A stretch of 64,000 bases of DNA from Ignavibacteria bacterium (GTDB taxonomy: Bacteria > Bacteroidota > Ignavibacteria > Ignavibacteriales > SURF-24), in the NCBI GenBank assembly GCA_025612245.1, contig JAAXKQ010000005.1, forward strand, positions 70,009 to 134,008, in the 5' to 3' direction. The translations under genes were made by a program, and so were the position numbers. This document shows, piece by piece, positions 772 through 28,171 of the stretch (positions are counted from its first letter, which is position 1; each line of letters begins with the position of its first letter). The notes below the pieces were generated by a model that was not told the DNA's origin, did no database searches, and was given only the letters and a program-made list of their open reading frames with translations.

Positions 772-1854
772 TTAGTTTCTCAGTCTCAAAAGGTTTTTCC
801 AGCTAGCGGTAAGGGGCTGCATAATCTCATCCACCCTTTCATCCTGTTTTCTTACGAGTGGGATTTCCGGATTAAATGAGGCCGAGGTTCCGAAATCCTC
901 AACTGTTCCGCGTTCAATATAGAAAGCAATAAGGTCAGCGAGCCTGGAAAGGACAACCCTTGAAAAGTAAGGTCCAATCCACCATATATAGGGGCCCGGG
1001 TTGCAGTCAAGCAGATAAAGACTGTTATCCGGTGCAACAATGACGTCCCAGGCGGAGAAGTTTAAGCCCAGGAGCCTGTTTGCCCTGGCGATTAAGGCTT
1101 CGTGTTCGGGGCTGAGGCTTACGGCTTCAAATCCCTTTGCATCGCTGCGGCTGTCGATGTCCTCAGAAACAATCCTGAGAGCAAGAACAACACTGTTTCC
1201 AACCGTGTGGACCCTGATAGTGCTGCCTTTTATTTCCTCCTGGAATAAAGAAGGGCAGTATTGGAGTTCTTCTTTCTCCGGCACCATGTTTTTCAAAAGC
1301 CTCCTTGTTCCTCCGACGCCATAGCCGGCCTTGATGATAAATTCCTCATCATTATGGAGAATCTTTTTTTTATAAAACCTGAGGCTGCCGGTTGCAAATG
1401 TATATGGAACAGGCAGGCCTTCTTGTTCAAGCATGTAGAAAAACTGTGCCTTGGCGTTGTGATGGAAATACGCAGATGGAGGGTTGATTACGAGAGCGCC
1501 TCTTTTTTCAAGCAGGCCGATCATGCCTGAAAATACTTTCTGCCTTGACTCTTCCATTAAGTAGCGTGCCTGCCAGAGGCTGAATTCAGCCGCGTTCAGA
1601 AGAGGCGGAATTACCGGAGGAACGCCGGTATTGATGCACCTTATGTAGACTGCCTTTACCGCAGAGAGATCCTCGCCGTAGACAATTTTATCGTTCCCAA
1701 GTACAATGTTGCTGGTTTTTATCTTGCCGTCTTCCTTAAAAGCCAGCATATAGGGCTTTTTCCCGCGTGACGAAAGTTCTTCAAAAAGAGTTACCGACTG
1801 GGGATCGTTAGCCTCTGGGGCAATTATAAGGCAGTCGGGACTGAAGTGATTCAT
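772..1854 (-). CDS. ATP-grasp family enzyme (RimK/glutathione-synthetase-like fold)
   Basis: 360 aa. Central IIKAGYGVGGTRRL (nucleotide-binding Lys/Gly-rich loop), QEEIKGSTIRVHTVG, and a C-terminal LYLLDCNPGP (D-x-N metal-ligand motif). Overlaps the upstream gene by 4 nt (1851-1854). Last gene of the minus-strand operon. Confidence 0.7.
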   Translation of the reverse strand: MNHFSPDCLIIAPEANDPQSVTLFEELSSRGKKPYMLAFKEDGKIKTSNIVLGNDKIVYGEDLSAVKAVYIRCINTGVPPVIPPLLNAAEFSLWQARYLMEESRQKVFSGMIGLLEKRGALVINPPSAYFHHNAKAQFFYMLEQEGLPVPYTFATGSLRFYKKKILHNDEEFIIKAGYGVGGTRRLLKNMVPEKEELQYCPSLFQEEIKGSTIRVHTVGNSVVLALRIVSEDIDSRSDAKGFEAVSLSPEHEALIARANRLLGLNFSAWDVIVAPDNSLYLLDCNPGPYIWWIGPYFSRVVLSRLADLIAFYIERGTVEDFGTSASFNPEIPLVRKQDERVDEIMQPLTASWKNLLRLRN

Positions 1855-2885
1855 CGAAGCTCCTGATTCTGCTGGATTTCAAACAAGTGGACCAGCATTC
1901 TTTTTAAGAATATTGTCTTTCTTTTTCCCTGAATTACAGGCTTTCGGGGAATCTTTTTCTCCAGGCCTGACTTTTTCAGCATGCCTTCCAGGAGACACGA
2001 CAATGTATAAGTCTGTGCCGCCTGATCCATGTAGGAAATGTTGGGGTCAAATGATACGTCGTAGAACCAGAAATTCCCACTGTCATCCAGAACGCCGAAA
2101 GCCTCGTAAAAGCTCATTCCAAGCAGTCTAAAGAGGGTCTTACCCATATTCTTCAGCACTGGCTGAGGGATATAATGCGTAAATTTTTCCAGCTCCTCTT
2201 TGAAGGCCCCCCTTTCAGGCGGTGAAATCAGACTGATCAGAAGCGGGTTGTCCTCAAAAAATGTAAGCCTTAAAAGGCTTCCGCGCTTTGGTTCATACAT
2301 TAGGTGCGGAAGCGCTAAACTGCCCGCATTAAAAAGTTCTTCCAGCTTCTCGGAACCTATCTCCCTTACAGGCGTCATGGAATCGGGGCTGGACCAGAGA
2401 ATTCCCCCCAGGCGATTGAACATAAGCCTCGCTTCAGAAAGTGAGTTTGTAAGGCATAATTCCGGGACACTTAGCCCTGCATCCTTTAGTCTCATGAGCA
2501 CTTCATGCCTCGAAGTCAGGTTTAAGGACAAGCTGAAATCATTTATTACGGTATATTCATTTTTTTTTGACGAGAGTATGTAAAGCAGGCTGTAGAGCTG
2601 GCTTGTCTGCTGCTGCTGCGACAAGTGAAAGTCCTGAAAAAAGGTCCAGTCGGCAGAAGGTTTTAAGGCAGGGCCGAAGGGGAACCTATAATAGACTCCT
2701 GAAAGAAAAAATACGGATCCTTTTTCGGGCCTGGAGCCACACAGGAGTATTTCCTCCGGGGAAATTGATACTGTAAATTGAGGATCCTTCGGGCACAAAT
2801 TCCTACATTTGATTCCGTTTTTCCGTGCTATTTTCTTCAAGAGCTCCGTCTGAGGGTTATAGTCATCACTTATCAAATAGAGCAT
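1851..2885 (-). CDS. Divergent ATP-grasp-like protein
   Basis: 344 aa. The layout matches an ATP-grasp: RHEVLMRLKDAGLSVPE, then GGILWSSPDS, then LLRLTFFEDNPL, then GVLDDSGNFWFYDVSFDPN. The D-x-N metal motif reads D-V-S, so it is degenerate. Overlaps the TolC-like gene by 20 nt. Confidence 0.45.
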   Translation of the reverse strand: MLYLISDDYNPQTELLKKIARKNGIKCRNLCPKDPQFTVSISPEEILLCGSRPEKGSVFFLSGVYYRFPFGPALKPSADWTFFQDFHLSQQQQTSQLYSLLYILSSKKNEYTVINDFSLSLNLTSRHEVLMRLKDAGLSVPELCLTNSLSEARLMFNRLGGILWSSPDSMTPVREIGSEKLEELFNAGSLALPHLMYEPKRGSLLRLTFFEDNPLLISLISPPERGAFKEELEKFTHYIPQPVLKNMGKTLFRLLGMSFYEAFGVLDDSGNFWFYDVSFDPNISYMDQAAQTYTLSCLLEGMLKKSGLEKKIPRKPVIQGKRKTIFLKRMLVHLFEIQQNQELR

Positions 2886-4608
2886 GTTCCGCCTTCTGAT
2901 TGTCCGTATTATTTATGATTTCCAGGGCCGTCCGGGGTTTAATTCCCAGGTATTGCATAAACTGTATGAGCAGGTCTATCTGGCTGTCGTAAACATTAAG
3001 TATGGCCATTGTTTCCGACAGGCCGGTTTTTTTATACTCGCTGTAGTCAAAGCGTGAAATACGCTGTATTTTGAAGAGCTCCTCGCCTTCCTTCATTATT
3101 TTGTTTGCGTAGGAGAGGTTATTGCGCGCTGAATTAAGGCTGATGTTGGAGGATTTCAGCTTAAATAAAAATTCATTTACCTGCAGATTAATATTCTCCT
3201 TTGTACTTTTGAGGTTCTGTTCCTGCTGTTCGTAATCTTCAATTGCAATCTGCCTCTGTATCCCGGAAGGGGAGGAAAAAAGGCTGAACCTGTAGTTAAA
3301 GCCTACATTCCAGGCAATGCCGTCGGGTTTACGGAAAAGGTTTCCAAGTGAATTTGTAATGGTGGAATATCCAAGCTCATCTGACTCAAAGACAGCCATG
3401 TTGCCTGTAAGAGAAATATCCGGCTTATACTGGTTAAGTGAATAGGCTAAGTTTACCTTTGCCTGTTCGAGCGACTTACGGGAAATTTCTATTTCCGGGT
3501 GCATATCTATAATTTTATCAGTCCCATCCTGCAGGCAGTTATTTACAAGGAACTTTTCGAAAGCCTCAAGATAGGTGTGTACGGAGTCAATTTGTGGAAT
3601 AAAAAGGTACATGTCCTGTGAGTTGACTACACTAGCCGGGTTCAGCTTTGCTGAAAGTGATATATAGTCGAAGAGCATCTGGTCCTTATCAGAAAGCATT
3701 TGCCTGTGTTCTTTTTCTATACGCAGGCGGTCGTAAACCGAGATCAAGTTTTTTGCAGTCAGTACCTGCTGGTCCTGCAACTGAACTTCCGTAAGCGCAA
3801 TCATCTCATGAATCAGCTTGAGCTTGTTCCAGAGGAAATATATTTTGAAGTAGTTTTTAATGGTCTCGTAGGATATGCTGTTTACTGCAATCTGTGAATT
3901 AGTTTTTGCAATATCGATGCTGATTTTTGTAATCTTCTTCTCATTCTCAACAGAAGAGCCTTCCTGTCCGGCATTCTTAAATAGGGGAAGTTCAAAACTG
4001 TTAGACAGTATGGCGCTCCATGGATAGCCGTATGCCTGTGGGAGGACCCTGTTTTTTAAGGAAAGGTTAAGCGCGTTGATGGAAAGTCCGTATGAAGTCC
4101 TGTAGTTAAAGCCCATACTATAAGACTGAAGAAAGTCCCTGTAGTCTGTACTTGCGTGGAGCTCAATTTCTCTTTCCTCCCATCTCAGAGGCTGGGGGAT
4201 CCACATGACGCCGCGGCCGCCGTTGGGAAGCCTGTAATCTGACTTAATTGGGTTCCTGTTATCCCATTCGACGGGAACCCTTGCATTTACGTCAACCAGT
4301 CTGTCGTATGAGCGGTAACCCTGAAGGCCTGCAGAGAGGTTAAAAACGGGTTTATAAGTCTCATCCGACAAAGAAAGCTGAAGGTCGTACTTTTGGATCT
4401 GTGTCCTGATAGAGCCGATTGCATAGGAGCTGCTGACCTGGTGGCGGATAATATCCCCGAGGTCCCTTGCTTTAAGTGAATCAAATACGGCAGAGCGCCC
4501 GGGAAAGATCTTGTTAAAATTATCAAGTATATCGCTTTCCGTCTGGGCATGAGCCGTTGCGGCATAAACAGCTAATATAAACAGTATTCTAGCGAATGAT
4601 CTCAGCAT
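2866..4608 (-). CDS. TolC-like outer-membrane channel (outer membrane efflux protein family)
   Basis: Start reassigned to the ATG at 4606-4608, giving the signal peptide MLRSFARILFILAVYAATAHAQ. About 580 aa with two-fold coiled-coil/beta-barrel organisation typical of the OEP family. The 5' end overlaps the upstream gene by 20 nt. Confidence 0.8.
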   Translation of the reverse strand: MLRSFARILFILAVYAATAHAQTESDILDNFNKIFPGRSAVFDSLKARDLGDIIRHQVSSSYAIGSIRTQIQKYDLQLSLSDETYKPVFNLSAGLQGYRSYDRLVDVNARVPVEWDNRNPIKSDYRLPNGGRGVMWIPQPLRWEEREIELHASTDYRDFLQSYSMGFNYRTSYGLSINALNLSLKNRVLPQAYGYPWSAILSNSFELPLFKNAGQEGSSVENEKKITKISIDIAKTNSQIAVNSISYETIKNYFKIYFLWNKLKLIHEMIALTEVQLQDQQVLTAKNLISVYDRLRIEKEHRQMLSDKDQMLFDYISLSAKLNPASVVNSQDMYLFIPQIDSVHTYLEAFEKFLVNNCLQDGTDKIIDMHPEIEISRKSLEQAKVNLAYSLNQYKPDISLTGNMAVFESDELGYSTITNSLGNLFRKPDGIAWNVGFNYRFSLFSSPSGIQRQIAIEDYEQQEQNLKSTKENINLQVNEFLFKLKSSNISLNSARNNLSYANKIMKEGEELFKIQRISRFDYSEYKKTGLSETMAILNVYDSQIDLLIQFMQYLGIKPRTALEIINNTDNQKAEHALFDK

Positions 4609-6847
4609 AGTCTCCCGGTAAAATTTTATTTCTTGACTGTTCGGTGATCTGGACTGAAATGAGTCCGTCACGATTGGATAATATTTTTCCTTTCCCCGCA
4701 TAGGCCATTTCCTGTTCGCCAAGGAAATCCGACTTTGCGTTGCTGATCCTGGCAAACCTGACTTCCTTTCCGGCCTCAACAATCATGCTTGCCGGAAGCC
4801 TGAGCTGTGCAATTCCATTTTCAACTTTTACAACTTCCATGTAAAGCGGGACGTGCATCGTCACCTCAAAGACCATGCGGAACAAGTTAGGCGGATTGCT
4901 TTTTGCAACCATGCGGTTATAAAAGAGCTGCTTTTTTACTCCCGGTTTTTCCTTGAAGCAATTGAAAACATATTCATTAAGGCCGTCTTTCTGGTTAACC
5001 TGGCAATAGAGGGCTACCTTGGAAATCCTGTTCAGGTTAGCCTGTGAAAGCCTCAGGTTTTCGACATCCACGACTTCAAAGCCGCGTTGTGAAAGATTTG
5101 CCACCAGTGCACTTTTAAGCCTGCTGACGTCAAGTTTTCCATGAGCCTTGACAGGCATGAGAAATATCTTGTTCACCTTGGAGAGGCTTTCAGAATTGAA
5201 GCTCTGGAACATGGTTCTTAATTTACTCTCATCAACAGCTGCCCAGTCGCCATACGGGTGCAATGTAAAGGAGCTGCTGGAATAAATGACTGTCGGATCT
5301 GCCGTCCTGAGTATTGCCTGTATATTTGAAACGACGTTCTGCGAAATGTTATCTTTGCACCACATTAAAGACAAAGGCTCGCTGCCTACGGAGAAGTTCT
5401 CTATGAGATTTGCTCCAGGGTTGGCGTACTTGTAGTAGTAGGCCGCCTCTTCGCTCACGAAGGCCACGTCGCTTTTGCCAGCAATGACAGAGTCAATTGC
5501 ATTGTAGGACATTTTTGCGTAGCTGAGCCTTGAGAAGTATGTCTCGGGATCGACGCCGCTTTTATAGAGCGAGAGGAAGGGTGAAAGGTAAGCATTTTTT
5601 GAAAACACAGCCTTAGTTCCCCTGATGCCATAAATATTTTTGAAAGTCCTTCTGCTCGAAACGGCAACGACATTAACGTAATTTTTCTTGCTCCAGGTCC
5701 TAATCAGTATAGGATGCCCGGAATGCGAAGAGTACAGCCGGTCCGAGATAATATTGTTGAAAATTGCAATGCTTACCGCGCCACTGGTGTAAGCATCGTA
5801 GAGCTCTTCCTCGGAGCCGTAAATCTTGAGCTGGAACTCCACGCCGCAGTTTTTCTTCAGGAACTGCAGCACGGGTTGCCATTCGGCTGCCATGGTGGTG
5901 TTTCCCACCGGCAAGACTGAAGTGCTGCTGATGCCGATTACCACGTCGCCTATACCGGCTAAGCCCTGAAGAGAATTGTTCCCTATAATGGTGAGTTTCG
6001 GGAACTGCGACTGCAGGTCCTCCATTATGCTTGAGCGTTCCTCGGCATTTGTGGATTTCATGTACATGGAATACTTATCCCAGAATTTTTTCCATGCAAA
6101 AGCCTTGGGGTAAAGGTTATTGAATATATATTTAACAGTGCTGTACATGCCGGGAAATTTTTCCTTGAGAACAATGTCGTGAGCCTGAAGTATGTTTGTA
6201 ATGTTAGAGCCGTACGTAAAGAGCGAGTCTATCTTCCAGGATTCCGGCGCAACACTTGCAGCCTCCGGAGGGAGGGGATAATCGTTGTAAAACTTTACGA
6301 ATGGAACGACTTCACGGAACAGGTCGACCAGGAACAGCATGTCGGGATTGTTTTGTTTTACAAGCCTGAAATCCTCCTCATTCATAGCAGCCAGGCTGAC
6401 GTCGCCGTAGGTGGCAAACTCAATTTCAAGATTTATCACGTTCTTTCTGACAATCAGTTCACCGTAAATTTTCTTCAGCTCCTGCCTGGAAGGATATTTG
6501 TCAACTGCCAGCCTGAAGGTTTCTGTCAGGTCGTCAGTTTTTGTAAGAAGAGTATCGATCTGCTCCATTGTGGTGAAATTTCGTTCGGAATACTTAATGT
6601 AATTTTCAAACTCGCCCGTTATCTTTTTAACGTACAGGTTCTCCTCTCGGACGCCTCTGACATAAATAATAGCCGTAAGCAGGACGGAAAGGAATACAAC
6701 CAGGGTTACTCCGAGCATCGTTTTTCTTTTCTTTGAGAGCCTGAAAGCGTTGACCGGTTCTTCTTTAGGGGCTTCTTCTTTTGGAGTTTCTTCCTGTTCA
6801 AGGAAAAGCTTTATTCCCTCTTCATCTGTTATTTTATATTTATTCAC
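4589..6847 (-). CDS. Single-pass membrane protein with large extracytoplasmic region containing a PhnD-like (type-2 periplasmic binding protein) domain
   Basis: 752 aa. Charged N-terminus, then one TM helix (MLGVTLVVFLSVLLTAIIYV). The central segment EWQPVLQFLKKNCGVEFQLKIYGSEEELYDAYTSGAVSIAIF...GTKAVFSKNAYLSPFLSLYKSGVDPETYF...SDVAFVSEEA resembles phosphonate-binding (PhnD) folds. Its start codon directly abuts the upstream stop codon (6847/6848). Confidence 0.55.
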   Translation of the reverse strand: MNKYKITDEEGIKLFLEQEETPKEEAPKEEPVNAFRLSKKRKTMLGVTLVVFLSVLLTAIIYVRGVREENLYVKKITGEFENYIKYSERNFTTMEQIDTLLTKTDDLTETFRLAVDKYPSRQELKKIYGELIVRKNVINLEIEFATYGDVSLAAMNEEDFRLVKQNNPDMLFLVDLFREVVPFVKFYNDYPLPPEAASVAPESWKIDSLFTYGSNITNILQAHDIVLKEKFPGMYSTVKYIFNNLYPKAFAWKKFWDKYSMYMKSTNAEERSSIMEDLQSQFPKLTIIGNNSLQGLAGIGDVVIGISSTSVLPVGNTTMAAEWQPVLQFLKKNCGVEFQLKIYGSEEELYDAYTSGAVSIAIFNNIISDRLYSSHSGHPILIRTWSKKNYVNVVAVSSRRTFKNIYGIRGTKAVFSKNAYLSPFLSLYKSGVDPETYFSRLSYAKMSYNAIDSVIAGKSDVAFVSEEAAYYYKYANPGANLIENFSVGSEPLSLMWCKDNISQNVVSNIQAILRTADPTVIYSSSSFTLHPYGDWAAVDESKLRTMFQSFNSESLSKVNKIFLMPVKAHGKLDVSRLKSALVANLSQRGFEVVDVENLRLSQANLNRISKVALYCQVNQKDGLNEYVFNCFKEKPGVKKQLFYNRMVAKSNPPNLFRMVFEVTMHVPLYMEVVKVENGIAQLRLPASMIVEAGKEVRFARISNAKSDFLGEQEMAYAGKGKILSNRDGLISVQITEQSRNKILPGDYAEIIR

Positions 6848-8118: not shown

Positions 8119-11100
8119 TTACTCGACTCCAAGCTGATCCTTTGCCATTGCATAATAGAATCCTTTCTGACGGATCAGTTCATCGTGAGTGCCTTTCTCC
8201 AGGACAATTCCGTCGCCGAGGAAACAGATTATGTCTGCGTTTCTTACCGTGCTCAGTCTGTGGGCAATGATAAAGGCCGTACGGTTAACGAGAATATTAT
8301 TCAGGTTTTCCTGAATCTTTCTTTCCGATTCCGCGTCAAGGGCTGATGTAGCCTCGTCAAAAATGAATATCTTGGGATTTCTGTAAAGCGCCCTTGCAAT
8401 GCAAATCCTCTGTTTTTGCCCGCCCGAGACTGCAAGGCCTCTTTCGCCGACTATCGTTTTATACCCGGCCGGCAGCTGTGTGATGAATTCATGGGCCGCG
8501 GCCATTTCTGCTGCCTCGCGGACCCTCTTCTCATCGGGATTTATGTCGCCAAGTGCTATGTTTTCCATTACCGTTCCGCTGAAAAGAAAACTTTCCTGGA
8601 GCACCATTCCGATGTTCCGTCTCAAAGAAAGGAGGTTAATATTCTTTATGTCAACCCCGTCAATCAGCAGTGAGCCTCCCGTAGGCATAATGAATCCCGG
8701 GATAGTTTTAATTAAAGTTGATTTGCCGCAGCCCGACTTGCCGACAAAGGCAACAACCTGACCGGGTTCCACTTTAAGGCTTATGCTTTTAAGTACGAGC
8801 GGTGAATCTTCAGAGCCATACCTGAACTGGAGGTTATTAAATTCAATGCGGCCATCGCAGTGTGTCATTTCGCGTTTTATTTCGCCGGCTGATACAACAG
8901 GTTTTTCCTCCGGCTCGCATTCAAAGACGTCGTTCAGCCTGTCCATTGCAACAGAAACCGACTGGTAGTTATCCCACAGTCCTACGATGCTCATGATAGG
9001 GCCCATTACAGAGCCTATAAGTGCATTAAATGCCATTAGCTGTCCGATGGACATAGAGCCATTGATTACCTGGTTGGAGCCCACCCAGAGTATGGCTACC
9101 GTAGATGCCGTATTCAGTGTCTGACTTATGACACCCGAGACTAGTCCCAGCTTCTGTGACTTAAAGGACAAGTTTACGGATTTCAGGAATGATTCTTCCC
9201 AGCGGTTTCTGACATTCCATTCCGTTCCGTTTGCCTTGATGGTCTCGATGCCGTGTATGGCTTCTATGAGATAGGATGACTGGTCGGAGCTAACAATGAA
9301 CTGCTCGTTGCTGATCCTTTTGAAAATAGGCGTAAAGACGAAGGTCAGCGCGATAAAAAACGGAATAAATGCAAGAACCACGAGTGAGAGTGTAACGCTG
9401 TAGAGAAACATCATCTGCAGATATACAACCAGCATAATTACGTTAAGGACCGTAGAAATTGAGGCCTCGGTAAGTATGGCCCTGATCTTTGAGTTTTCGC
9501 CAAAGCGCGTTATCGTGTCGCCAAGTTTCCTGTTGTAAAAATAACTCATCGGGAGGCTGAGCACGTACTTGAAAAACTCAGCCAGCATGCGAAGGTCCAG
9601 CTTGGCTGAAATGGTTGCAATTATGAACTGCTGGGCGCTCGAAGTCAAAGTGGAAAAGAAAGCAACGAGCACCATTCCCATCAGCATCATGTTCAATAGA
9701 GACGTGTTTTTATAGACTATTACGTTATCAAGAATGGACTGAATAAAAAGAGGGCTGGCAAGGCCCAGAATATTCAGTATGAGTGCCCCTATAAAGACCT
9801 CAATCAAGAAAATCTTCATTGGTTTCAGGTAGTTTATGTACCTGAATATCGGGTTCTTCGCCGGCTTGAGCTCATTAAGGCGTTCTGTAGGCTCAAGCTC
9901 AATGGCATAACCGGTCCAGCTTTTTTTGAACTCGCCGTGTGAAATTTTTCTGATTCCGATTGCAGGGTCAGCCACCCACACGAATTCTTTGGATATCTTA
10001 AAAAGTACAATCCAGTGATAACCCTGCCAGTGAAGAATGGCAGGAAGGTTTACATCTTTTAATGCCGGGTATGTAAGCTTCAGCCCGCGCGTCCTGAAGC
10101 CGAGGTTTTCACCTGCCTTGCACACGGCAGCCATTGAGGCGCCTGCAACAGAGACGTTTGCCATTTCCCTTACCATACCCATGCTCAGCTTGTGTCCGTA
10201 GAACTTGGAGACCATCGTAAGGCAGGCAGCACCGCAATCCATTTCGTCGTGCTGCCTGAGCCAGGGGAATTTCTTTATTTTCTTTCCCTCGTCGAAAGCA
10301 GGGAATTCATCCTCAGTTTCGCTTGTGTGAGAGCTGAGTTCTTTCTGGCGCTTCTCTTCAGTTTCGTAGCTGTTGATTTTCTCTAAAAGGGCCTCCCTCA
10401 GTGCTCCGTTCAAGGAAAATATTTCCTGGACAAAATTATTAGGGATTTCGAGCAATGTTGCGGCCGTCTTGGTCCTGGCTTCATAGCCCTGCTTCCGGCC
10501 AGTAATTGCTCCGTACTCGCCCAAAAAGTCGCCATTATGGGCCAGCCCGACGGAGAACTTGCCTTCGGGCATATCCCTGAGAATTTCTATAGAGCCCTTT
10601 ACGACGTAATAAAGGGAGTTGCTCATTTCGTCCTGTTTGAAGATGGTTTCGGCTTCTTCGTAGCCGGAAATCCAGACACTCTCAGAAAGCTGGCCTAGCC
10701 AGGCTTCGTCCGGCTTTTTGACTGCAACTATTTTTGAAAGCAATCTCTTAAATTCGGAGCATGCAATTTCTTTTTTCAGCTTGGAGGCAACACTGGCAAG
10801 CTCTGGCTTCCCGGCATTTATTTCATATACAAGGGTTTCATCGGCCGAAGAAATGGAATAATCCCAGCAGCCGGGCCTGATGAAAGACATCTCGCCCGTA
10901 AAGTCGCCGGCATTTAATTTCCCGACGCTTCTGAGTTTATCGTCAATCTTTTTTTTGAGGCGGAGGCTTCCTGAAACGACGGAAATAAAGGTATTCTGCT
11001 CATCGCCCTCGTTATAAAGCTCTTCGCCAAGAGTGAGCTTTCGTGTTGAGGTATTAGCCGAGAGAGCCTCCATCTCCTCAGCTGTAAGGCCGGAGAAGAG

Positions 11101-11148
11101 TGACACAGAATTTAATTTTTCTAAAACCGCATCTTCTTTAAAATACAT
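8119..11148 (-). CDS. C39 peptidase-domain ABC exporter with two N-terminal cyclic-nucleotide-binding-like domains
   Basis: 1009 aa. Two cNMP-like modules lie at about aa 15-125 and 150-250 (LFSGLTAEEMEAL...GDFTGEMSFI; YYVVKGSIEIL...GDFLGEYGAITG). The C39 domain has Gln299, Cys305 (RQHDEMDCGAACL), His378 (GYHWIVL) and Asp394 (VADPA). A six-helix TMD follows, then an NBD with GKSGCGKST, VSGGQKQR, IFIFDEATSALD and IIAHRLS. Confidence 0.9.
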   Translation of the reverse strand: MYFKEDAVLEKLNSVSLFSGLTAEEMEALSANTSTRKLTLGEELYNEGDEQNTFISVVSGSLRLKKKIDDKLRSVGKLNAGDFTGEMSFIRPGCWDYSISSADETLVYEINAGKPELASVASKLKKEIACSEFKRLLSKIVAVKKPDEAWLGQLSESVWISGYEEAETIFKQDEMSNSLYYVVKGSIEILRDMPEGKFSVGLAHNGDFLGEYGAITGRKQGYEARTKTAATLLEIPNNFVQEIFSLNGALREALLEKINSYETEEKRQKELSSHTSETEDEFPAFDEGKKIKKFPWLRQHDEMDCGAACLTMVSKFYGHKLSMGMVREMANVSVAGASMAAVCKAGENLGFRTRGLKLTYPALKDVNLPAILHWQGYHWIVLFKISKEFVWVADPAIGIRKISHGEFKKSWTGYAIELEPTERLNELKPAKNPIFRYINYLKPMKIFLIEVFIGALILNILGLASPLFIQSILDNVIVYKNTSLLNMMLMGMVLVAFFSTLTSSAQQFIIATISAKLDLRMLAEFFKYVLSLPMSYFYNRKLGDTITRFGENSKIRAILTEASISTVLNVIMLVVYLQMMFLYSVTLSLVVLAFIPFFIALTFVFTPIFKRISNEQFIVSSDQSSYLIEAIHGIETIKANGTEWNVRNRWEESFLKSVNLSFKSQKLGLVSGVISQTLNTASTVAILWVGSNQVINGSMSIGQLMAFNALIGSVMGPIMSIVGLWDNYQSVSVAMDRLNDVFECEPEEKPVVSAGEIKREMTHCDGRIEFNNLQFRYGSEDSPLVLKSISLKVEPGQVVAFVGKSGCGKSTLIKTIPGFIMPTGGSLLIDGVDIKNINLLSLRRNIGMVLQESFLFSGTVMENIALGDINPDEKRVREAAEMAAAHEFITQLPAGYKTIVGERGLAVSGGQKQRICIARALYRNPKIFIFDEATSALDAESERKIQENLNNILVNRTAFIIAHRLSTVRNADIICFLGDGIVLEKGTHDELIRQKGFYYAMAKDQLGVE

Positions 11149-12640: not shown

Positions 12641-14761
12641 CTATTTTAAGATCATGATCTTTTGTGCCTGAGTAAAACTTCCACACCTCATCATCACAAA
12701 GTATGTGCCGCTTGGAAGATATTTTCTCCCCCATGAAAGCTTATGGTAACCTTTGGTCATCAGTCCTTTTAATATGTCTTCCACCTTTCTGCCCGTTACG
12801 TCATATAGTCCGATCTCGACATAGCCTTCCTTCGGGATGGAAAAGTGCAGAGTGGTAGATGGATTAAAGGGATTAGGATAAGGTTCATATAAAGCGTAAG
12901 CGCCTTTTTTAATCATGTCATTCGGAGTCTGGCAGTGCTGGTGAAACAGCCCCGTCACGGCTACGGGAAAAGGATTCGGATGCAGCAGGAATAACGGTAT
13001 TTCATCGGGGTTCTGCATGCCGTCATCTTCACAATAAAGGTAGTTATTTGTTACTTCAAGGTTTACCACTTTGAGGCTTTTCATCGTATCAGGTATTGTC
13101 TTGAGGAAGTTGTCTGATATGTTTATGGTTGCAACCGGGTTTTTGAGCTTTGTCAGGACAAGTGGCATTGAAGTAAACTTGTTGTTGTCGAGAGTTAAGT
13201 TAGCCAGGCTGTCAAGTCCGGAGAAACTCTCCGGAAGGTCCGTTAGCTCGTTATAAGACAGTGTAATGTTTACGAGCCTCATTTTTCCGAAATTCTCCGG
13301 GAGTCTGGCCAGTTTGTTGTTCTTAAGGCTGAGTACCCTGATCTCCGGGAGGTTGCAGAAGCTCTCCGGCAATTCCACCAGTTTATTATTCTCAAGGTTC
13401 TGCACCACAATACCCTTCAGATTTCCGTAGTTTTGCGGAAGGCGGGTAAGTTCGCAATTTTGCAGTGCAATTACGCGGAGCTGGGTCCCTATCTGCCCGA
13501 ATGTTTCGGGCAACGTTTCCAGGGGGTTGTCATTCAGATAAATTTCCTTCAGAGTGTGAAGGTTTCCTATGGAGCCCGGAATACTTGTAAGTGAATTGCC
13601 GTATAAAAAGACAGATTCAATGGATGGGAAGCTTCCGAAGGCAGAAGGCAGCAAAGAAAGGCTGTTGCTCGAAAGGTCCAGCATCTTTAGCTGCGGCATC
13701 AGTCCAATGTCATCCGGCAGAGATGATATCTTATTAACTGAGGCATTGAATGATTCAAGGCTATCCATCTGCCACATGTTTATGGGCAGCGTCTTTAAGG
13801 CATTTTTTGAAACGTTAAGAGACTTTAGCCCCTTCAGGCTTGTAATTCCGCCGGGAAGGACCTCAAAATTATTATCCGCAAGTATGAGCGTCTTCAGGCT
13901 AGTCTTCAGGCTAAAGAGCCCTTCAGGAAGCGTTTTCAGGTAATTTTTCTCAAGGTTGAGCAAATTTAGTTTCTTCAGGCCTCCAAGAGTTCCGGGGAGG
14001 CTTAAAAGAGAGTCATAAGTAAGAGATAATGTTTCGAGTCTGGACAAGCTCCCCGTGCTGTTCGGGAGCTTATAGAGCGAACGGTTGTTATCCAGGTAAA
14101 GTTCTGTAAGAGGTAGCCCATCCAGGTCTTCTTCTTTTATTTCTTTAATTATATTCCCGGCAAGGTTCAGATACTTCAGCTTACCAAGCCTGTTAAAGAA
14201 TTTGATGTCGGAGCCAAAGCCCGGGATGCAGAACAGTGTGTCTGCAGGCAGCCTCTGAAGTCCGTTTGCCGACAGGTCCAGATAGCTCAGTGAATTAAGA
14301 TACACAAACTTTTTCGGCAGGGCGGTAAGCCTGTTGCCGGAAAGGCTCAGGAACTGAAGGCCGGAAAAAGCAGTGATCTCATCGTCGAGGCTTTTAACGG
14401 CATTGTTATTCAGAATCAGTGTGTCTAAATTTGTGAGCTTGTAAAAATTTACGGGCAGGAAGGTAATCTTGTTATAGCTCAGGTCCAGATAGTGCAGTGC
14501 CGTAAGGTTTTCAATTGTTTCGGGAATATTTTCCAGGTCGTAATTGCTTACGATAAGTTTCTCGAGTCTCCCAGTAAAATAATTCCATTTTTGATAACCT
14601 ATCGATCCCGGGGCTTCACCATACAGGCTGTTTGCCGCACACAGATCCCTTATAAATTGAACGTCATCCTCATTAAGCGATAACTGAGCAAAGGTTGTCT
14701 GAAGGAAAATGCACTGAAAAGCTGCAACTAATACTAAATTTCTCAGCCAATTTATTTTCAT
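12641..14761 (-). CDS. Leucine-rich-repeat protein with T9SS C-terminal sorting domain
   Basis: 706 aa. Signal peptide (LVLVAAFQCIFLQTTFAQ). Roughly twenty 23-24-aa LxxLxLxxNxLxxLP repeats by hand estimate. C-terminus is YPNPFNPSTTLHFSIPKEGYVEIGLYDVTGRKV...KIMILK. The 71-nt gap to the HlyD gene has no evident hairpin. Confidence 0.85.
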   Translation of the reverse strand: MKINWLRNLVLVAAFQCIFLQTTFAQLSLNEDDVQFIRDLCAANSLYGEAPGSIGYQKWNYFTGRLEKLIVSNYDLENIPETIENLTALHYLDLSYNKITFLPVNFYKLTNLDTLILNNNAVKSLDDEITAFSGLQFLSLSGNRLTALPKKFVYLNSLSYLDLSANGLQRLPADTLFCIPGFGSDIKFFNRLGKLKYLNLAGNIIKEIKEEDLDGLPLTELYLDNNRSLYKLPNSTGSLSRLETLSLTYDSLLSLPGTLGGLKKLNLLNLEKNYLKTLPEGLFSLKTSLKTLILADNNFEVLPGGITSLKGLKSLNVSKNALKTLPINMWQMDSLESFNASVNKISSLPDDIGLMPQLKMLDLSSNSLSLLPSAFGSFPSIESVFLYGNSLTSIPGSIGNLHTLKEIYLNDNPLETLPETFGQIGTQLRVIALQNCELTRLPQNYGNLKGIVVQNLENNKLVELPESFCNLPEIRVLSLKNNKLARLPENFGKMRLVNITLSYNELTDLPESFSGLDSLANLTLDNNKFTSMPLVLTKLKNPVATINISDNFLKTIPDTMKSLKVVNLEVTNNYLYCEDDGMQNPDEIPLFLLHPNPFPVAVTGLFHQHCQTPNDMIKKGAYALYEPYPNPFNPSTTLHFSIPKEGYVEIGLYDVTGRKVEDILKGLMTKGYHKLSWGRKYLPSGTYFVMMRCGSFTQAQKIMILK

Positions 14762-14903: not shown

Positions 14904-16472
14904 ATGATGCCAGTGAAAGTTATAGCTTTAATTTCCTCCATGTTTGTACTTTCGTCCTTACTTACATTTGCAGGGGGAATCCGGGTTAAAAACGCCGTAA
15001 TTGATGAAATAAACCTGCAAAAGAAATATGCCTATGTGAGTTTTGACCTGAGCTGGGAAAACTCATGGCGGAGTGATCTGCCCGGAACGGGCCATGTTGA
15101 CCCTTTTAACCACGATGCCGCCTGGGTATTTGTGAAATATAAGGACCAGGCGGGCTACTTCAGGCATGCATTGCTTTCGAGCATAAGCCGGAGCCACGTT
15201 TCGGACGGGAAAGCTGCAATTAGTGCATCCCCGGATGGCAAGGGGGTCTTTATTTATTCCGGGAGCAATTTTTCGGGGCGCGCTGAATACAGGGGAATTA
15301 GGCTCAAATGGAATTTTGGTTCTGAAAATGCGGAAATTAAGAAAAGTACGGAGATCAGGGTCCTTGCTGTTGAAATGGTCTATGTTCCTGAAGGCTCCTT
15401 TTATGCCGGCGACGGCGCTTCCTATGGAAGCCTCTACGGCAAAACTCAGGATGTGCCATCGCTAATCGGCGAAGGCGAGAGCCTGGTTAGGGCTTCCAGG
15501 AACAGTTTTGATGATGAAGCTCTCATTCAGGAAGGATTTTGGATTTCGGGTAAATCGGGCATAAGATCCAAAGACGGCTCATTTGAAAATCCGGAATACC
15601 CGTGCGGATACGGAGCCTTCTATATTATGAAGTATGAAATATCACAGGGAGAGTATTCCGGGTTTTTGAACCTGATTTCGGTAAAACAGTCATACAGGCG
15701 TGAAGCAAAGGCCTATGGTGAATACAGGAATACGATCAGATTTGACGGAAATAAGTTTATTGCAGAACGCCCTTCAAGGGCCTGCAACTTTTTAAGCTGG
15801 ATGGATGGCGCTGCGTATGCAGACTGGACGGGGCTGCGCCCGATGAGTGAGCTTGAGTTTGAAAAAGCTGCCAGGGGTTTTAACTCCGGGGCAGGTCTTC
15901 CAAATGCCGCAAAAAAGAATGAATTTGCGTGGAATGATGATAGCATCAGTCCCGCACTGTCAATTGGGGGAAAGGAAGACGGTTCTGAGGTGGCCGAAGG
16001 TAATGCTGCATTTGGCAATGTAACCTATAAAGGAGGCGACGGTATGTCCGGTCCCTTGAGGTGCGGGATCTTTGAAAATCCGGGACAGGGGAAACTTTCA
16101 GGCCGAAGCTACTATGGGGTCCTGGACCTAAGCGGCAACCTTGCCGAACAGTGTGTTACAATCGGCAACCAGGCAGGCCGTTCATTTACAGGTAATGAAG
16201 GTGACGGCATGTTGAATGAAGCCGGGGACGCCGACGTAAGCTACTGGCCGGGCATTAATGGCAATTCAGATCAGGAGAAGTCAAGCCTGGCCTATGTGGG
16301 AAATGTTGTTGAAGGGCCCGGGGTTACTGCTGCAGCCGGAAGCGGGCAGAAAGGAGGCAGCTGGTATACGAAAAAGAGTTTCCTCATGATCAGCGACCGC
16401 TCGTACGCTTCACATCCGCTTGACTATAGATCCGAGTCCGCCGGTTTCAGATGCGTAAGAAGTGCCAGATAA
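14904..16472 (+). CDS. Exported FGE-sulfatase (SUMF1/GldK-like) domain protein
   Basis: 522 aa. Signal peptide (VIALISSMFVLSSLLTFAGG). The C-terminal half has SWMDGAAYADWTGLRPMSELEFEKAARG, YGVLDLSGNLAEQC, KGGSW and a terminal GFRCVRS, matching the formylglycine-generating-enzyme fold signature. Confidence 0.75.
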   Translation: MMPVKVIALISSMFVLSSLLTFAGGIRVKNAVIDEINLQKKYAYVSFDLSWENSWRSDLPGTGHVDPFNHDAAWVFVKYKDQAGYFRHALLSSISRSHVSDGKAAISASPDGKGVFIYSGSNFSGRAEYRGIRLKWNFGSENAEIKKSTEIRVLAVEMVYVPEGSFYAGDGASYGSLYGKTQDVPSLIGEGESLVRASRNSFDDEALIQEGFWISGKSGIRSKDGSFENPEYPCGYGAFYIMKYEISQGEYSGFLNLISVKQSYRREAKAYGEYRNTIRFDGNKFIAERPSRACNFLSWMDGAAYADWTGLRPMSELEFEKAARGFNSGAGLPNAAKKNEFAWNDDSISPALSIGGKEDGSEVAEGNAAFGNVTYKGGDGMSGPLRCGIFENPGQGKLSGRSYYGVLDLSGNLAEQCVTIGNQAGRSFTGNEGDGMLNEAGDADVSYWPGINGNSDQEKSSLAYVGNVVEGPGVTAAAGSGQKGGSWYTKKSFLMISDRSYASHPLDYRSESAGFRCVRSAR

Positions 16473-16639: not shown

Positions 16640-16655
16640 AGGCATAAAACTTGTT
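16640..16655 (+). promoter_or_regulatory. Weak sigma-54 -24/-12-like element upstream of the precursor genes
   Basis: AGGCAT-N5-TTGT compared with the consensus TGGCAC-N5-TTGC. GG is at the correct -24 position but the -12 GC reads GT. Lies 55 nt upstream of the ATG at 16711. Confidence 0.25.
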
Positions 16656-16710: not shown

Positions 16711-17157
16711 ATGGCAAGAATTAAATTAAATGATCTGGAAGTTAACCAGCAGCTTGATGCTGAGGCACTGAAGAATGTAACCGGCGGCGCCGGGACATAT
16801 ACAAATGCTGCTAATACCGGGACGAAAACCGGAGGAAATTCATCAAACTATGGTACACAGTCCGGCGGAACGGGTGGTTCGGGCGGTTATGCAAGCGGCG
16901 GCTCTACAAGCGGCGGAAGCGGCTTTGGAGGCCAGGGTATAGGCGGCGGAGCATCTTCAGGCGGATGGGGCTTCTTAAATTTTGGCGGCGGAAATAAAGG
17001 CGGCGCTGGCTATGGCGGCAATGCGTCGGCTTCGACCATTGGAGCAGTCGGTGGCGCCGGTGGCGCAGGCGGGTCAGCCGTGGGTGTCATGAATTCCGGC
17101 AATGTTACCGACAACATGTCTGAATCAGTTTCAATTCCTGTTACACTAAGCTTATAA
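16711..17157 (+). CDS. Double-glycine-leader, glycine-rich secreted protein precursor 1
   Basis: 148 aa. AGGAGG Shine-Dalgarno sequence 7 nt upstream. The leader MARIKLNDLEVNQQLDAEALKNVTGG has hydrophobic residues at -4, -7 and -12 and Glu at -9 relative to the GG. The 122-aa core has no Cys and 42 Gly by hand count. Conserved C-terminal tail SGNVTDNMSESVSIPVTLSL. Confidence 0.85.
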   Translation: MARIKLNDLEVNQQLDAEALKNVTGGAGTYTNAANTGTKTGGNSSNYGTQSGGTGGSGGYASGGSTSGGSGFGGQGIGGGASSGGWGFLNFGGGNKGGAGYGGNASASTIGAVGGAGGAGGSAVGVMNSGNVTDNMSESVSIPVTLSL

Positions 17158-17167
17158 GGAGAATAAT

Positions 17168-17620
17168 ATGTCGAGAATAAAATTAAATGACCTCGAAGAA
17201 AATCAGCAGCTTGATGCTGAAGCATTAAAACAGGTTACAGGCGGAAACAATATCACAAACTCAGCAAATACCGGAACCAAGACCGGAGGAAACTCAACCA
17301 ACTACGGCACACAGTCCGGCGGAACGGGTGGTTCGGGCGGCGGATCATACGGCGGATGGACCTCAGGCGGCAGCGCAGGCGGTGGAACAGGTTTTGGCGG
17401 CAGTGCTACGGGCGGAGCCGGAAGCTGGGGCTTCCTGAACTTCGGCAGCACTGGTAATAAAGGCGGCGCTGGCTATGGCGGCAATGCATCGGCTTCGACC
17501 ATTGGAGCAGTCGGTGGCGCCGGTGGCGCAGGCGGGTCAGCCGTGGGTGTAATGGGTTCAGGAAACGTTTCCGACAACGTTTCAGAATCTGTTTCCATTC
17601 CAATTACCATGTCATTATGA
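17168..17620 (+). CDS. Double-glycine-leader, glycine-rich secreted protein precursor 2
   Basis: 150 aa. AAGGAG Shine-Dalgarno sequence. Leader MSRIKLNDLEENQQLDAEALKQVTGG. The core is collinear with precursor 1 (GTKTGGNS.NYGTQSGGTGGSGG, WGFLNFG, NKGGAGYGGNASASTIGAVGGAGGAGGSAVGVM, SESVSIP). Confidence 0.85.
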   Translation: MSRIKLNDLEENQQLDAEALKQVTGGNNITNSANTGTKTGGNSTNYGTQSGGTGGSGGGSYGGWTSGGSAGGGTGFGGSATGGAGSWGFLNFGSTGNKGGAGYGGNASASTIGAVGGAGGAGGSAVGVMGSGNVSDNVSESVSIPITMSL

Positions 17621-17658: not shown

Positions 17659-17803
17659 TTCAGCTGCATCTCAATGCTGAAAAATAAAAAATGTTCGATG
17701 ATAATTTGTGAATGAATTTTTACTGAGTTTTCGTTAACTTGTTCCCCGATTTTTGTTCCCAAGACCATTGGGAATTTAACTGTTTATCTTGCAAGGAGGA
17801 TTC

Positions 17804-19120
17804 ATGGAAAAATATTTCTTTAATGTTCGTAATTCCCGGATATACTGTTCTGACGTCCTGAACTTCATGAAATTAACCGGCCTTTATCATACAGCTCATA
17901 CCTATACGGCAATGAACTCGGTCCTGAAAGAATTTGCAAAAAAGCTTGGCGTAGCAGTTAGCGATGAGATGCTCCAGAATTATGCTGATTATAAAAGAAA
18001 GCAGCTTGGACTTCTGAAGGCAGAGCAGATGCAGAAATACCTCGATACGCTGGAAGTCTCACTTGAGGACTGGGAGACTTCGCTGGAAGATGAACTCTAC
18101 CGTATTGAGCTCAGGAATAAATTGGGAGGTTCCATTTATGTCGGTGACGCCTGGAACATACTCAAGACGATTCCGGAGATCAGAAACAGCATAAATGAAA
18201 TTATAGCAGAAAAAGCTGGCAGCTGCAAATTGGACTTAAGCGACGAAGAGCTTCAAAAGGAATCGGATGTTTTAAGACGAGCCCTTAACCTCCACAAGAA
18301 AAGTGATCTCTCGGTATACCTGAACAGCCTCAACATGAATGAAGAGGACTGGGAGAAAAACGTAACAGCGAGCGTTTTTTCGAGAAAGTTAAAAGAAAAG
18401 AATATTTCTCCTTTAACCAAAAATGAAGTAGCCAGCATATTAAACCGCTACCCCGTAATAAAGGATCTCCTGAGTAAACTTGTCTTCGGCAATATTATAA
18501 GGGCCAAAGCTTCAGAACTGAATATTTCGGTTAGCGATGAAGAGCTCAACTCCTACGCCGAAAACTTCCGCAGGGCTTTAGGTCTCCATAAAACAGAGCA
18601 TTTTAACATCTGGCTGAATGCCGCCGGATTAAATATAGAAGATTTTGAAATTATGGCTGAAACGGCCATACTGGCAAAGAAGGTAATTCAAAACTCAGAT
18701 GAACTACAGTACAAGGGCGACATTGAAAAAAGCGTAAAGTGCAGTTCATTTTTCAGCGATGCTCTCCTGGAAGTAATCTCGCAGGAGCTCATCGCCTCCG
18801 AAGCAAGGCAGAAAGGAATGAAGGTCAGTGACGCTGAACTGCAGGAACTTTCCGATGCTTTAAGGCGCGTCAACGGATATCACAAGGCTTCAGTATTCGA
18901 AAAACACCTGGAATTCTACGGCCTGCCTGCTGAATGCTGGGAAGAGTACGTTGAAAGACAATCTTTGATTAAAAAGATGAAAGAGGCCCAGACCACTGAT
19001 GAGAGGGTTCTGGAGTATCTCCATGATAATAAAGAAGCTTTAGATTCAATGAAAGCTGAAGCATTCAGGGACTACGCTTATAAGCTGTCTTCAAAGTCTC
19101 AACTTGAATGGTTCAACTAA
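17804..19120 (+). CDS. Cytoplasmic protein built from four SurA-N-terminal-like repeats
   Basis: Start moved to the ATG at 17804, which has an AAGGAGGA Shine-Dalgarno sequence upstream. 438 aa with no signal peptide. A module of about 95 aa recurs four times: x(V/L)SDxELQxxxDxxRRxLGLHKxxxFxxxLxxxGLxxEDWE, with the SD(E/A)E cores encoded near 17957, 18236, 18530 and 18824. Confidence 0.6.
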   Translation: MEKYFFNVRNSRIYCSDVLNFMKLTGLYHTAHTYTAMNSVLKEFAKKLGVAVSDEMLQNYADYKRKQLGLLKAEQMQKYLDTLEVSLEDWETSLEDELYRIELRNKLGGSIYVGDAWNILKTIPEIRNSINEIIAEKAGSCKLDLSDEELQKESDVLRRALNLHKKSDLSVYLNSLNMNEEDWEKNVTASVFSRKLKEKNISPLTKNEVASILNRYPVIKDLLSKLVFGNIIRAKASELNISVSDEELNSYAENFRRALGLHKTEHFNIWLNAAGLNIEDFEIMAETAILAKKVIQNSDELQYKGDIEKSVKCSSFFSDALLEVISQELIASEARQKGMKVSDAELQELSDALRRVNGYHKASVFEKHLEFYGLPAECWEEYVERQSLIKKMKEAQTTDERVLEYLHDNKEALDSMKAEAFRDYAYKLSSKSQLEWFN

Positions 19121-27894: not shown

Positions 27895-28171
27895 CTTCCT
27901 GCACCTTCCAGCAGCTAAATTTCCGGTTTATCCACGGGGGAAAAGCTGATAATGGGGAAAAAAGTACGCTGTAATTGATGTCCGTATTTTTTAATTAATT
28001 ATGTCCCCGAAATAAATTCAAGTAAAAGAAATTCGCGCAAGAACTGCCGATTTGCAGCAGTTTTTCTTCCGACACTGCCTTTCTTAAAAATCTATTGCCA
28101 GTGCTATAAATGTTTTTTGCCCTTTGAAAAATCCATTTGATATAAATAAATATTTAATCTATGGAGGGCCA

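Follow-up and report, generated by a model that had tools for sequence, protein, structure and literature searches.

A long-type C39 peptidase-containing exporter of Ignavibacteria with non-canonical tandem cNMP-binding-like domains and nearby double-glycine leader genes

Described C39 exporters and the Ignavibacteria protein

In 2011 Wang et al. described a "long type" of C39 ABC transporter, which carries an additional CAP_ED domain at its N-terminus; with reference to Dirix et al. 2004 they also noted double-CAP_ED proteins that stand alone in these clusters (PMC3140520). A 2024 study of HetC from Nostoc PCC 7120 found that the protein cannot do without its peptidase and ATPase residues and that function is lost when residues 2-278, the region of its cyclic nucleoside monophosphate (cNMP) domain, are deleted (PMC10986499). 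The N-terminal domain of HetC was not stabilised or bound by cAMP or 2-oxoglutarate but was stabilised by GDP, GTP and guanosine tetraphosphate (ppGpp), the dissociation constant (Kd) of HetC for ppGpp being 59 uM (PMC10986499). PteB (Synpcc7942_1133) of Synechococcus elongatus is described as sharing the domain organisation of HetC and secretes the proteins EbfG1-4, which carry the double-glycine (GG) motif (PMC4997328). Here we describe a peptidase-containing ABC transporter (PCAT) with an N-terminal tandem of cyclic nucleotide-binding-like (CNB) domains, encoded in a 64,000-nucleotide stretch of an Ignavibacteria bacterium (assembly GCA_025612245.1, contig JAAXKQ010000005.1, positions 70,009 to 134,008 of the forward strand; the whole stretch is called the window below). 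Its CAP_ED-C39-ABC architecture is already known, the N-terminal CAP_ED fusion that defines the long type is present, and its catalytic and ATPase motifs are complete. The phosphate-binding Arg is missing from both cassettes of the tandem, GG-leader genes lie nearby, and the surrounding gene order is conserved in other genomes. We think it fairly probable that this long-type PCAT exports two glycine-rich GG-leader proteins and that its tandem is a re-purposed regulatory module.

An earlier note on this DNA, made from the letters of the window, had placed here a reading frame with two cNMP-binding-like domains, a C39 domain, a transmembrane domain (TMD) and a nucleotide-binding domain (NBD). 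The frame was recovered as described, on the minus strand, which the note had left unstated; the layout agreed with the Pfam hits, the residue numbers given for Q299, C305, H378 and D394 were exact, and the predicted general function, cleavage of GG leaders coupled to export, was accepted as right. The Pfam model PF00027 (cNMP_binding) scored 94.8 bits against a cutoff of 27.5 over two stretches, the best being residues 163-245. The matches to PF03412 (Peptidase_C39; E 8.5e-35, above cutoff), PF00664 (ABC_membrane; E 3.7e-46, 158.5 bits) and PF00005 (ABC_tran; E 2.3e-34, 119.4 bits) followed in this order (Table 1); the domain assignment is far above chance level. The oxyanion Gln and the Cys-His-Asp residues of the C39 domain are all present (Q299 in QHDEMDCGAACL, C305, H378 in HWIVL and D394 in VADPA), and the motifs of the ATPase domain are intact (Walker A GKSGCGKST, signature VSGGQ, Walker B IFIFDEATSALD and H-loop AHRLST). 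Residues 292-1003 matched residues 11-722 of PCAT1 of Clostridium thermocellum (4ry2) end to end, with E 8.7e-137. An identical protein, MCU7494100.1, has been deposited from metagenome-assembled genomes of Ignavibacteria. PF00027, PF03412, PF00664 and PF00005 occur together in nearly all of the best 120 homologues, which are spread over Ignavibacteria, Kapaibacteria, Delongbacteria, Cloacimonadota, Fibrobacterota, Gamma- and Deltaproteobacteria, Planctomycetes and cyanobacteria. The exporter itself is an ordinary representative of a widespread, named architecture and, taken alone, changes little.

The exporter and HetC share a cNMP-fold N-terminus, an active C39 domain, a six-helix TMD, an ATPase domain and non-canonical cassettes. 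They differ in that only the C39-ABC part aligns, the cyanobacterial relatives showing 41-44% identity over ~71-77% of the query, and in that HetC has no adjacent adaptor gene and acts in heterocyst differentiation (PMC10986499), whereas the window holds genes for a HlyD protein, an outer-membrane factor, ATP-grasp proteins, a sigma-54 activator and clear GG-leader cargo. The view in the earlier note that such an architecture lacks a mechanistic description is in part outdated in view of the 2011 description of the long type (PMC3140520) and the 2024 work on HetC (PMC10986499). By its description, PteB is similar in being a C39 exporter accompanied by several small, tandem-encoded GG-motif proteins that are not classical antibiotics, a parallel to the two tandem cargo genes of the window. 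It belongs, however, to another phylum, its cargo sequences are unrelated, and an ATP-grasp, PpiC or sigma-54 context has not been reported for it. PCAT1 (4ry2, 6v9z, 7t54) has the same C39-TMD-NBD core with comparable spacing of the catalytic Cys, His and Asp, but it has no N-terminal extension, and it works without an adaptor or outer-membrane partner because its host is Gram-positive. A search of the PDB with the exporter found no structure in which the tandem, the C39 domain and the ABC core occur together.

The N-terminal tandem and its phosphate-binding cassettes

Residues 1-290 were modelled with AlphaFold2 from a 26-sequence family alignment. The model (mean predicted local distance difference test score, pLDDT, 88.7; predicted TM-score, pTM, 0.74) consists of two beta-barrels with a long helix after each, and the PF00027 score, the pLDDT and the Foldseek E-values agree in predicting the CNB fold, an eight-stranded beta-barrel, for the tandem. 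The best Foldseek matches in the PDB were the tandem CNB-A/CNB-B domains of the regulatory (R) subunits of PKA and PKG, with E 3e-20 to 1e-16 over ~260 columns and an identity of 13-18%; the TM-scores of 0.35-0.44 indicate that the relative orientation of the two CNB domains differs from that in the R subunits. In the latter (2qcs, 5j3u, 6flo, 6hyq) two CNB barrels are likewise joined by a long helix, but they are bound to a kinase, whereas the tandem here is fused to a transporter. Among the Foldseek matches is PKA-R of Trypanosoma, a cAMP-independent protein whose crystals contained guanosine or inosine according to the PDB titles; since it has lost cAMP binding and binds nucleosides, such tandems can evidently be re-purposed. 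In sequence the tandem diverges fast, and for this reason a word-indexed homologue search with the N-terminal 290 aa returned no matches; an exhaustive search with the same region gave 3 representatives only at E < 1e-30.

In canonical CNB domains the phosphate-binding cassette opens with a Gly-Glu that contacts the ribose 2'-OH, and an Arg clamps the cyclic phosphate; in PKA, CRP and Epac the affinity for cNMPs depends mainly on this Arg. The cassettes of the exporter read GEMSFIRPGCW95DY in CNB1 and GEYGAITGRKQ220GY in CNB2, and the phosphate-binding Arg is missing from both. The [ST]-A that follows it is likewise gone, the corresponding residues being W95-D96-Y97 in CNB1 and Q220-G221-Y222 in CNB2. 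Canonical members of the family show FGEAAL..TRNATV (CNB1) and FGELSVL..SRAASV (CNB2) at the same ungapped columns, and a subgroup of homologues with textbook cassettes (SFGEAALSQGGTRNATV, FFGELSVLNGSSRAASV) has Arg residues at the columns of W95 and Q220 without gaps. For CNB2 the assignment was also obtained with HMMER against E. coli CRP, where G-E-Y-G-A-I-.-T-G-R-K-Q-G-Y-E-A-R is aligned with G-E-L-G-L-F-E-E-G-Q-E-R-S-A-W-V-R and R82-S83-A84 of CRP falls column by column on Q220-G221-Y222. Alignments of CNB1 to solved CNB domains of the PDB break off inside the cassette helix.

The residues at the columns of W95 and Q220 were then counted in 98 full-length homologues. The W/Q class, to which the exporter belongs and which covers several phyla, was the largest (35/98), followed by the canonical R/R class (16/98), a cyanobacterial class with F and a gap (13/98) and an H/Q class (10/98); the other 24 include L/T in P0097, which, having Cys at position 347, is probably a HetC orthologue. 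HetC-like proteins are also non-canonical at the Arg columns. Among 33 non-redundant sequences of the W/Q clade, conservation is at least 88% for G85, E86, G210, E211, G213, A214, R63 and K65, and at least 94% for the Gly-Glu of both cassettes (G85-E86, G210-E211), in an N-terminal region with an overall identity of only 23-35%. R63 and K65 are in strands beta4/5 of CNB1 and are among the most conserved positions of the 290 residues.

The earlier note had favoured gating of cleavage or export by a cyclic nucleotide and had proposed inspecting the cassettes for the conserved Arg and Glu. Glu was found in both (E86, E211), Arg in neither, and the gating idea is weakened accordingly: as the Arg is replaced in both cassettes, canonical sensing of cAMP or cGMP by the tandem is unlikely. 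The Gly-Glu, being kept and conserved, makes the pockets look re-purposed rather than decayed. By these alignments, the phosphate-clamping half of each cassette is lost, and the ribose-contacting half and the replacement residues are under selection. The homologues split into members with fully canonical cassettes (16/98) and members with conserved non-canonical ones, here with Trp and Gln.

Probable cargo and maturation genes, and the sigma-54 activator

Two tandem GG-leader genes, 5.5 kb from the exporter gene, encode what is probably its cargo. They were found by a looser six-frame scan for GG leaders; a strict regular expression had missed both. Both leaders follow M-x-R-I-K-L-N-D-L-E-x-N-Q-Q-L-D-A-E-A-L-K-x-V-T-G-G, with hydrophobic residues at -4, -7 and -12. 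The remaining body of ~122 aa is rich in Gly, Ser and Asn, and the C-terminus ..NVxDNxSESVSIPxTxSL is conserved in both paralogues, where the T-D-N-x-S-E-S segment hints at donor and acceptor residues for cross-links. Neither protein had a Pfam or NCBIfam match, and the exact sequences were absent from the large protein collection searched. A homologue from elsewhere, P0273, has the same layout; a search with cargo 2 gave 2 matches only, probably owing to the low complexity of the sequence. The same type of leader occurs beside CNB-PCAT homologues in Gammaproteobacteria and other Pseudomonadota (MARITFNDIERNETLEQEAMAAAMGG, MARIELNTIEQNVSLGREQLADAKGG, MLNITDLAVSRELAQGEMATVVGG).

Gene arrays rich in Gly, Ala and Ser were seen in Desulfobacterota, in the collected loci L007 (2648-4025, plus strand), where an ATP-grasp gene follows directly, and L024 (2135-2395, minus strand). 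They encode proteins of 86-92 aa of the form MSFDDAxANVGVNQxGKSGG...DATDNTSIGSINISS. Their C-terminal T-D-N-T-S motif resembles that of the cargo in the window, which suggests one cargo superfamily with variable leaders.

The genes around the exporter and the cargo point to maturation before export. The ATP-grasp protein matched solved graspetide ligases (7drm, E 5.6e-21; CdnC, 7mgv, E 2.9e-08; the 5ig9 ligase, E 4.9e-07; also 5ig8). Its gene overlaps by 4 nt that of a 344-aa conserved protein, which had no significant match in Pfam, NCBIfam or the PDB. The two proteins are collinear, with a weak similarity (19% identity, E 0.06), and the 344-aa protein is possibly a degenerate ATP-grasp paralogue or a partner. 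Downstream of the cargo genes are a SurA-N-like, PpiC-related protein and a PpiC-type peptidyl-prolyl isomerase (PPIase); neither has a signal peptide, and the SurA-N-like protein has no hydrophobic N-terminus. Gene sets of this kind are known: the rosaritide cluster (MirA-D) comprises a precursor, a TIGR04187 ATP-grasp, a TIGR04500 partner required for activity and a PCAT (PMC13097080, 2026), and Makarova et al. listed C39-ABC, HlyD and TIGR04500 among the families most often found with graspetide ATP-grasp genes (PMC8939145). Relatives of all four rosaritide gene kinds are present in the window. The window differs in that its TIGR04187 and TIGR04500 matches are well under the curated cutoffs, that its cargo of ~122 aa is glycine-rich and stands against a short core peptide, and that an adaptor, an outer-membrane factor, a 752-aa periplasmic protein and a sigma-54 activator are added. 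As its ATP-grasp, TIGR04500-like, GG-leader and PCAT genes resemble that set, the window appears to hold a relative of a PPIase-associated graspetide-type system with unusually large glycine-rich cargo.

Loci were collected around close homologues, around distant homologues and from 80 species-representative genomes, and each was scanned with the proteins of the window. The search of the 80 genomes used an alignment spanning CNB2 and C39, the tandem-only alignment having too few conserved stretches. Genes for HlyD, the outer-membrane factor, ATP-grasp and PpiC-like proteins are conserved around the exporter homologues. HlyD is directly 5' of the exporter in most loci with an upstream flank, often with a PpiC rotamase beside it, and the cassette of 752-aa protein, outer-membrane factor, 344-aa protein and ATP-grasp recurs in Ignavibacteria, Kapaibacteria and partly Fibrobacterota.

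The gene of a sigma-54 enhancer-binding protein begins 20 nt downstream of the exporter gene in the window. No domain was found in its residues 1-95 with Pfam or the PDB, and no receiver or sensor domain; alignment across loci showed a conserved helical segment of ~50 aa at its N-terminus. Among the 24 tandem loci with usable flanks, from several phyla, such an activator gene directly follows the exporter gene in 14 distinct loci, often with a 4-nt overlap, and is within 2.5-4.7 kb in 3 more, as compared to 6 of the ~49 PCAT loci without a tandem, all six from Myxococcota; these counts are not phylogenetically independent. The receiver-less activator was seen next to the CNB-PCAT gene at L001-L003, L005, L006, L011-L013, L015-L018, L020-L022 and L028-L030. 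Near-perfect sigma-54 promoters (TGGCAC-N5-xTGCA) precede GG-leader genes in four loci, namely L005 (14971+ / 14714-), L017 (1691- / 326-), L018 (15212- / 3217-) and L020 (3319-), the 16-nt match starting 64-101 nt upstream of the start codon and the promoters lying ~48-85 nt ahead of the cargo genes. As background, 4 sites were found in 205,740 positions (five loci, both strands), and 3 of these 4 were upstream of cargo genes. The cargo at promoter-bearing loci is partly aromatic-rich (e.g. ...GG|WFFYYNVFNPY...NNFISFLRS) and not glycine-rich. Near the operon in the window, the scan found no site with 0 or 1 mismatches. A weak promoter-like site lies before cargo 1 (Table 1), and a similar one, AGGCACAATACTTGTA, is at the same position in locus L001 (89% identical). 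With 3 mismatches allowed the scan gave 468 matches against 460 expected by chance, so this site is a weak lead only and not significant alone.

Interpretation of the tandem and further genes of the window

From these features we infer which proteins are exported, in what order they are modified and exported, and what the tandem does and binds, in the following way. A dimer of the exporter, with the HlyD-type adaptor and the outer-membrane factor, would most likely form a one-step exporter spanning the envelope. The cargo would probably be modified or chaperoned before export by the graspetide-type ATP-grasp ligase and the PpiC-like partners. Cleavage by the intact C39 domain would remove the 26-residue double-glycine leader from the two ~150-aa glycine-rich proteins, and the TMD and ATPase domains would expel the ~122-aa products. 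The tandem would bind a signal other than a cNMP and couple it to cleavage or transport. On the example of HetC the ligand might be a non-cyclic nucleotide such as (p)ppGpp or GTP; nucleosides, segments of a peptide and partner proteins are the other candidates. That the tandem is a working regulatory module is suggested by the conservation, across phyla, of the remaining cassette residues and of those that replace the Arg.

Several observations weigh against this reading. The two GG-leader genes stand 5.5 kb off on the opposite strand, no precursor gene lies inside the exporter operon, and the proposed pairing of exporter and cargo is drawn only from synteny and the type of leader. The exporter scores below the curated NCBIfam cutoffs for PCATs (TIGR01193, 498.8 vs 523.85; TIGR03796, 550.3 vs 853.3; TIGR01846, 617.7 vs 725.55) and is close to these equivalog and subfamily models but no member of them. 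The SurA-N-like protein matches TIGR04500 ("putative peptide maturation system protein") with E 1.6e-28 and 99.9 bits, below the cutoff of 180, and the ATP-grasp protein reaches ~50 bits for TIGR04184 and TIGR04187, the cutoffs of which are 475 and 350. R218 and K219 adjoin Q220 and could in principle replace the lost Arg upon a shift of the loop, and the conserved Gly-Glu could serve the stability of the fold alone. As to the ligand, the affinity of HetC for ppGpp is weak and its physiological relevance was called uncertain by the authors (PMC10986499). The cassettes of HetC-like proteins moreover lack the Glu (FGGDRLF..VL-PY), in contrast to the Gly-Glu with Trp and Gln found here, and because of this difference the ppGpp/GTP property of HetC cannot be transferred to the exporter.

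Other roles for the tandem can be weighed against the preferred one of a re-purposed regulatory module. Gating of leader cleavage or export by bound cAMP or cGMP would suit a tandem that passes the Pfam cNMP_binding threshold, has the PKA-R fold and keeps the ribose-contacting Gly-Glu in both cassettes; the name that one homologue bears in its NCBI record also counts in its favour. The homologues that are fully canonical in both domains make cNMP control plausible for these cousins and perhaps for the ancestor. For the exporter itself we regard it as highly improbable, since both Arg residues, the established main determinants of affinity, and the [ST]-A after them are replaced and since the characterised relative HetC does not bind cAMP (PMC10986499). 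The tandem might instead serve for docking, the alternative given in the earlier note, as a ligand-free platform that receives the ATP-grasp/PpiC complex or the leader segment RIxLNDLE, which lies N-terminal to the part that C39 domains usually contact, so that only matured cargo reaches the peptidase. Positions -24 to -17 of the leader are conserved from Ignavibacteria to Pseudomonadota, even where no ATP-grasp gene is present within 10 kb, which suggests that a universally present component probably reads this segment; the aromatic residues in place of the Arg (W95, Y97, Y212, Y222) and the free-standing double-CAP_ED and C39-less CAP_ED-ABC proteins of cyanobacterial bacteriocin clusters (PMC3140520) also fit a modular adaptor. 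Such docking is nevertheless unlikely in our view, as the C39 domain could read the entire leader unaided and the ribose-binding Glu conserved in both cassettes argues for a small-molecule pocket.

A further alternative is that the tandem regulates in trans the adjacent receiver-less sigma-54 activator, thereby coupling transcription of the cargo to export capacity. Depending on cargo load, the helical N-terminus of the activator would be captured or set free by the exporter in its idle or engaged state, giving feedback on sigma-54-dependent cargo transcription. PspA-PspF and MalK-MalT are precedents for the control of an activator in trans. The adjacency of the two genes in tandem loci, its rarity in tandem-less PCAT loci, the lack of a sensor domain in a protein that has a conserved helical N-terminus in common, and the canonical sigma-54 promoters before cargo genes in four loci are all consistent with it, and loss of hetC changes the transcription of several genes (PMC10986499). 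The adjacency may, however, mean co-regulation or operon structure only, and the association is with a clade and not demonstrably with the tandem itself. No activator gene is found at some CNB-PCAT loci (L004, L007, L008), and the promoter match of the window itself is weak. We consider this alternative, including the feedback by cargo load, quite unlikely; if true, it would amount to a checkpoint that ties transcription to secretion and is shared by lineages from Ignavibacteriota and Fibrobacterota to Gammaproteobacteria.

For the re-purposed module that we prefer, a paired comparison of canonical and non-canonical cassettes could reveal what the domain senses and how the PCAT is gated; HetC is the only member studied for this so far. 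With a probable cargo and a complete cassette of genes, the exporter is more tractable than HetC, whose substrate is not known. The surroundings of the exporter are more informative than its own domains. The exporter, the sigma-54 activator, the sigma-54 promoters and the conserved GG leader would together make up a secretion module, present in several phyla, for small proteins rich in glycine or in aromatic residues; no description of such a module was found in the literature searched. This module is a more interesting by-product than the exporter itself.

Table 1. Coordinates of the exporter, its domains and the associated features of the window
Feature	Position	Strand	Basis and remarks
CNB-PCAT gene	8119..11148	-	1009 aa, ATG start; open reading frame (ORF) and translation, Pfam domains, PCAT1 alignment
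CNB1, residues ~12-141 (beta-barrel 33-111, long helix 115-141)	10726..11115	-	Pfam cNMP_binding, AlphaFold2, Foldseek
CNB1 cassette, residues 85-98, GEMSFIRPGCWDYS	10855..10896	-	G85-E86 kept, Arg replaced by W95; family alignments
CNB2, residues ~148-277 (beta-barrel 159-235, helix 248-277 into C39)	10318..10707	-	Pfam 163-245, CRP alignment E 1e-08, AlphaFold2
CNB2 cassette, residues 210-223, GEYGAITGRKQGYE	10480..10521	-	G210-E211 kept, Arg replaced by Q220, Ser/Ala by G221-Y222; CRP and family alignments
C39 peptidase domain, residues 293-422	9883..10272	-	PF03412; motif positions
ABC exporter TMD, residues 448-717	8998..9807	-	PF00664; hydropathy peaks
ATPase domain (NBD), residues 786-935	8344..8793	-	PF00005; motifs in sequence
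Probable cargo 1, 148 aa	16711..17157	+	leader MARIKLNDLEVNQQLDAEALKNVTGG (nt 16711-16788); C-terminus ...NVTDNMSESVSIPVTLSL; six-frame leader scan
Probable cargo 2, 150 aa, paralogue of cargo 1	17168..17620	+	leader MSRIKLNDLEENQQLDAEALKQVTGG; orthologues in L001
Weak sigma-54-promoter-like site AGGCATAAAACTTGT	16640..16654	+	57 nt upstream of cargo 1; 3 mismatches; -12 reads GT, not GC
HlyD/AprE-type periplasmic adaptor, 472 aa, one N-terminal transmembrane helix	11151..12569	-	Pfam HlyD_3, HlyD_D23; TIGR01843 E 2.9e-28
Sigma-54 enhancer-binding protein, 416 aa	6848..8098	-	Pfam Sigma54_activat E 6e-66; synteny
752-aa bitopic protein, transmembrane helix 41-67, predicted periplasmic PhnD-like substrate-binding fold	4589..6847	-	Pfam Phosphonate-bd E 6.7e-18; transmembrane prediction
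Outer-membrane factor (TolC-like)	2866..4608	-	Pfam OEP E 4.1e-23
344-aa conserved protein	1851..2885	-	conserved in L001-L004, L007, L008, L011, L012
ATP-grasp ligase, graspetide type (maturase of ribosomally synthesised and post-translationally modified peptides), 360 aa	772..1854	-	PDB matches
SurA-N-like / PpiC-related protein, 443 aa as listed	17789..19120	+	Pfam SurA_N_3; TIGR04500
PpiC-type peptidyl-prolyl isomerase, 252 aa	19160..19918	+	Pfam Rotamase E 3.4e-13; synteny
FGE-sulfatase-like protein, 522 aa, signal peptide	14904-16472	+	beside cargo genes, divergently transcribed

The genes of the minus strand follow each other in the order LRR/T9SS protein, HlyD adaptor, exporter, sigma-54 activator, 752-aa protein, outer-membrane factor, 344-aa protein and ATP-grasp, the HlyD gene stopping 3 nt ahead of the start of the exporter gene. 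The 752-aa protein is conserved in L001-L004, L008, L011 and L012, and its gene comes next after that of the exporter or the activator in loci of Ignavibacteria, Kapaibacteria and Fibrobacterota. Within the listed ORF, the outer-membrane factor probably starts at M59, and the signal peptide MLRSFARILFILAVYAATAHA comes next; its counterpart in the orthologous locus L001 has 582 aa. Directly upstream of the HlyD gene (12641-14761, minus strand) is a gene for a 706-aa protein with leucine-rich repeats (LRR) and a C-terminal sorting domain of the type IX secretion system (T9SS), a domain that agrees with an origin in the FCB group. This protein was considered as cargo and rejected, having a secretion-sorting domain of its own and being missing from L004 and other loci. 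It is kept, together with the FGE-sulfatase-like protein, in the closest loci (L001-L003) and not in more distant ones. The plus strand also holds a very large ORF (28124-34549), which starts with TTG and encodes 2141 aa.

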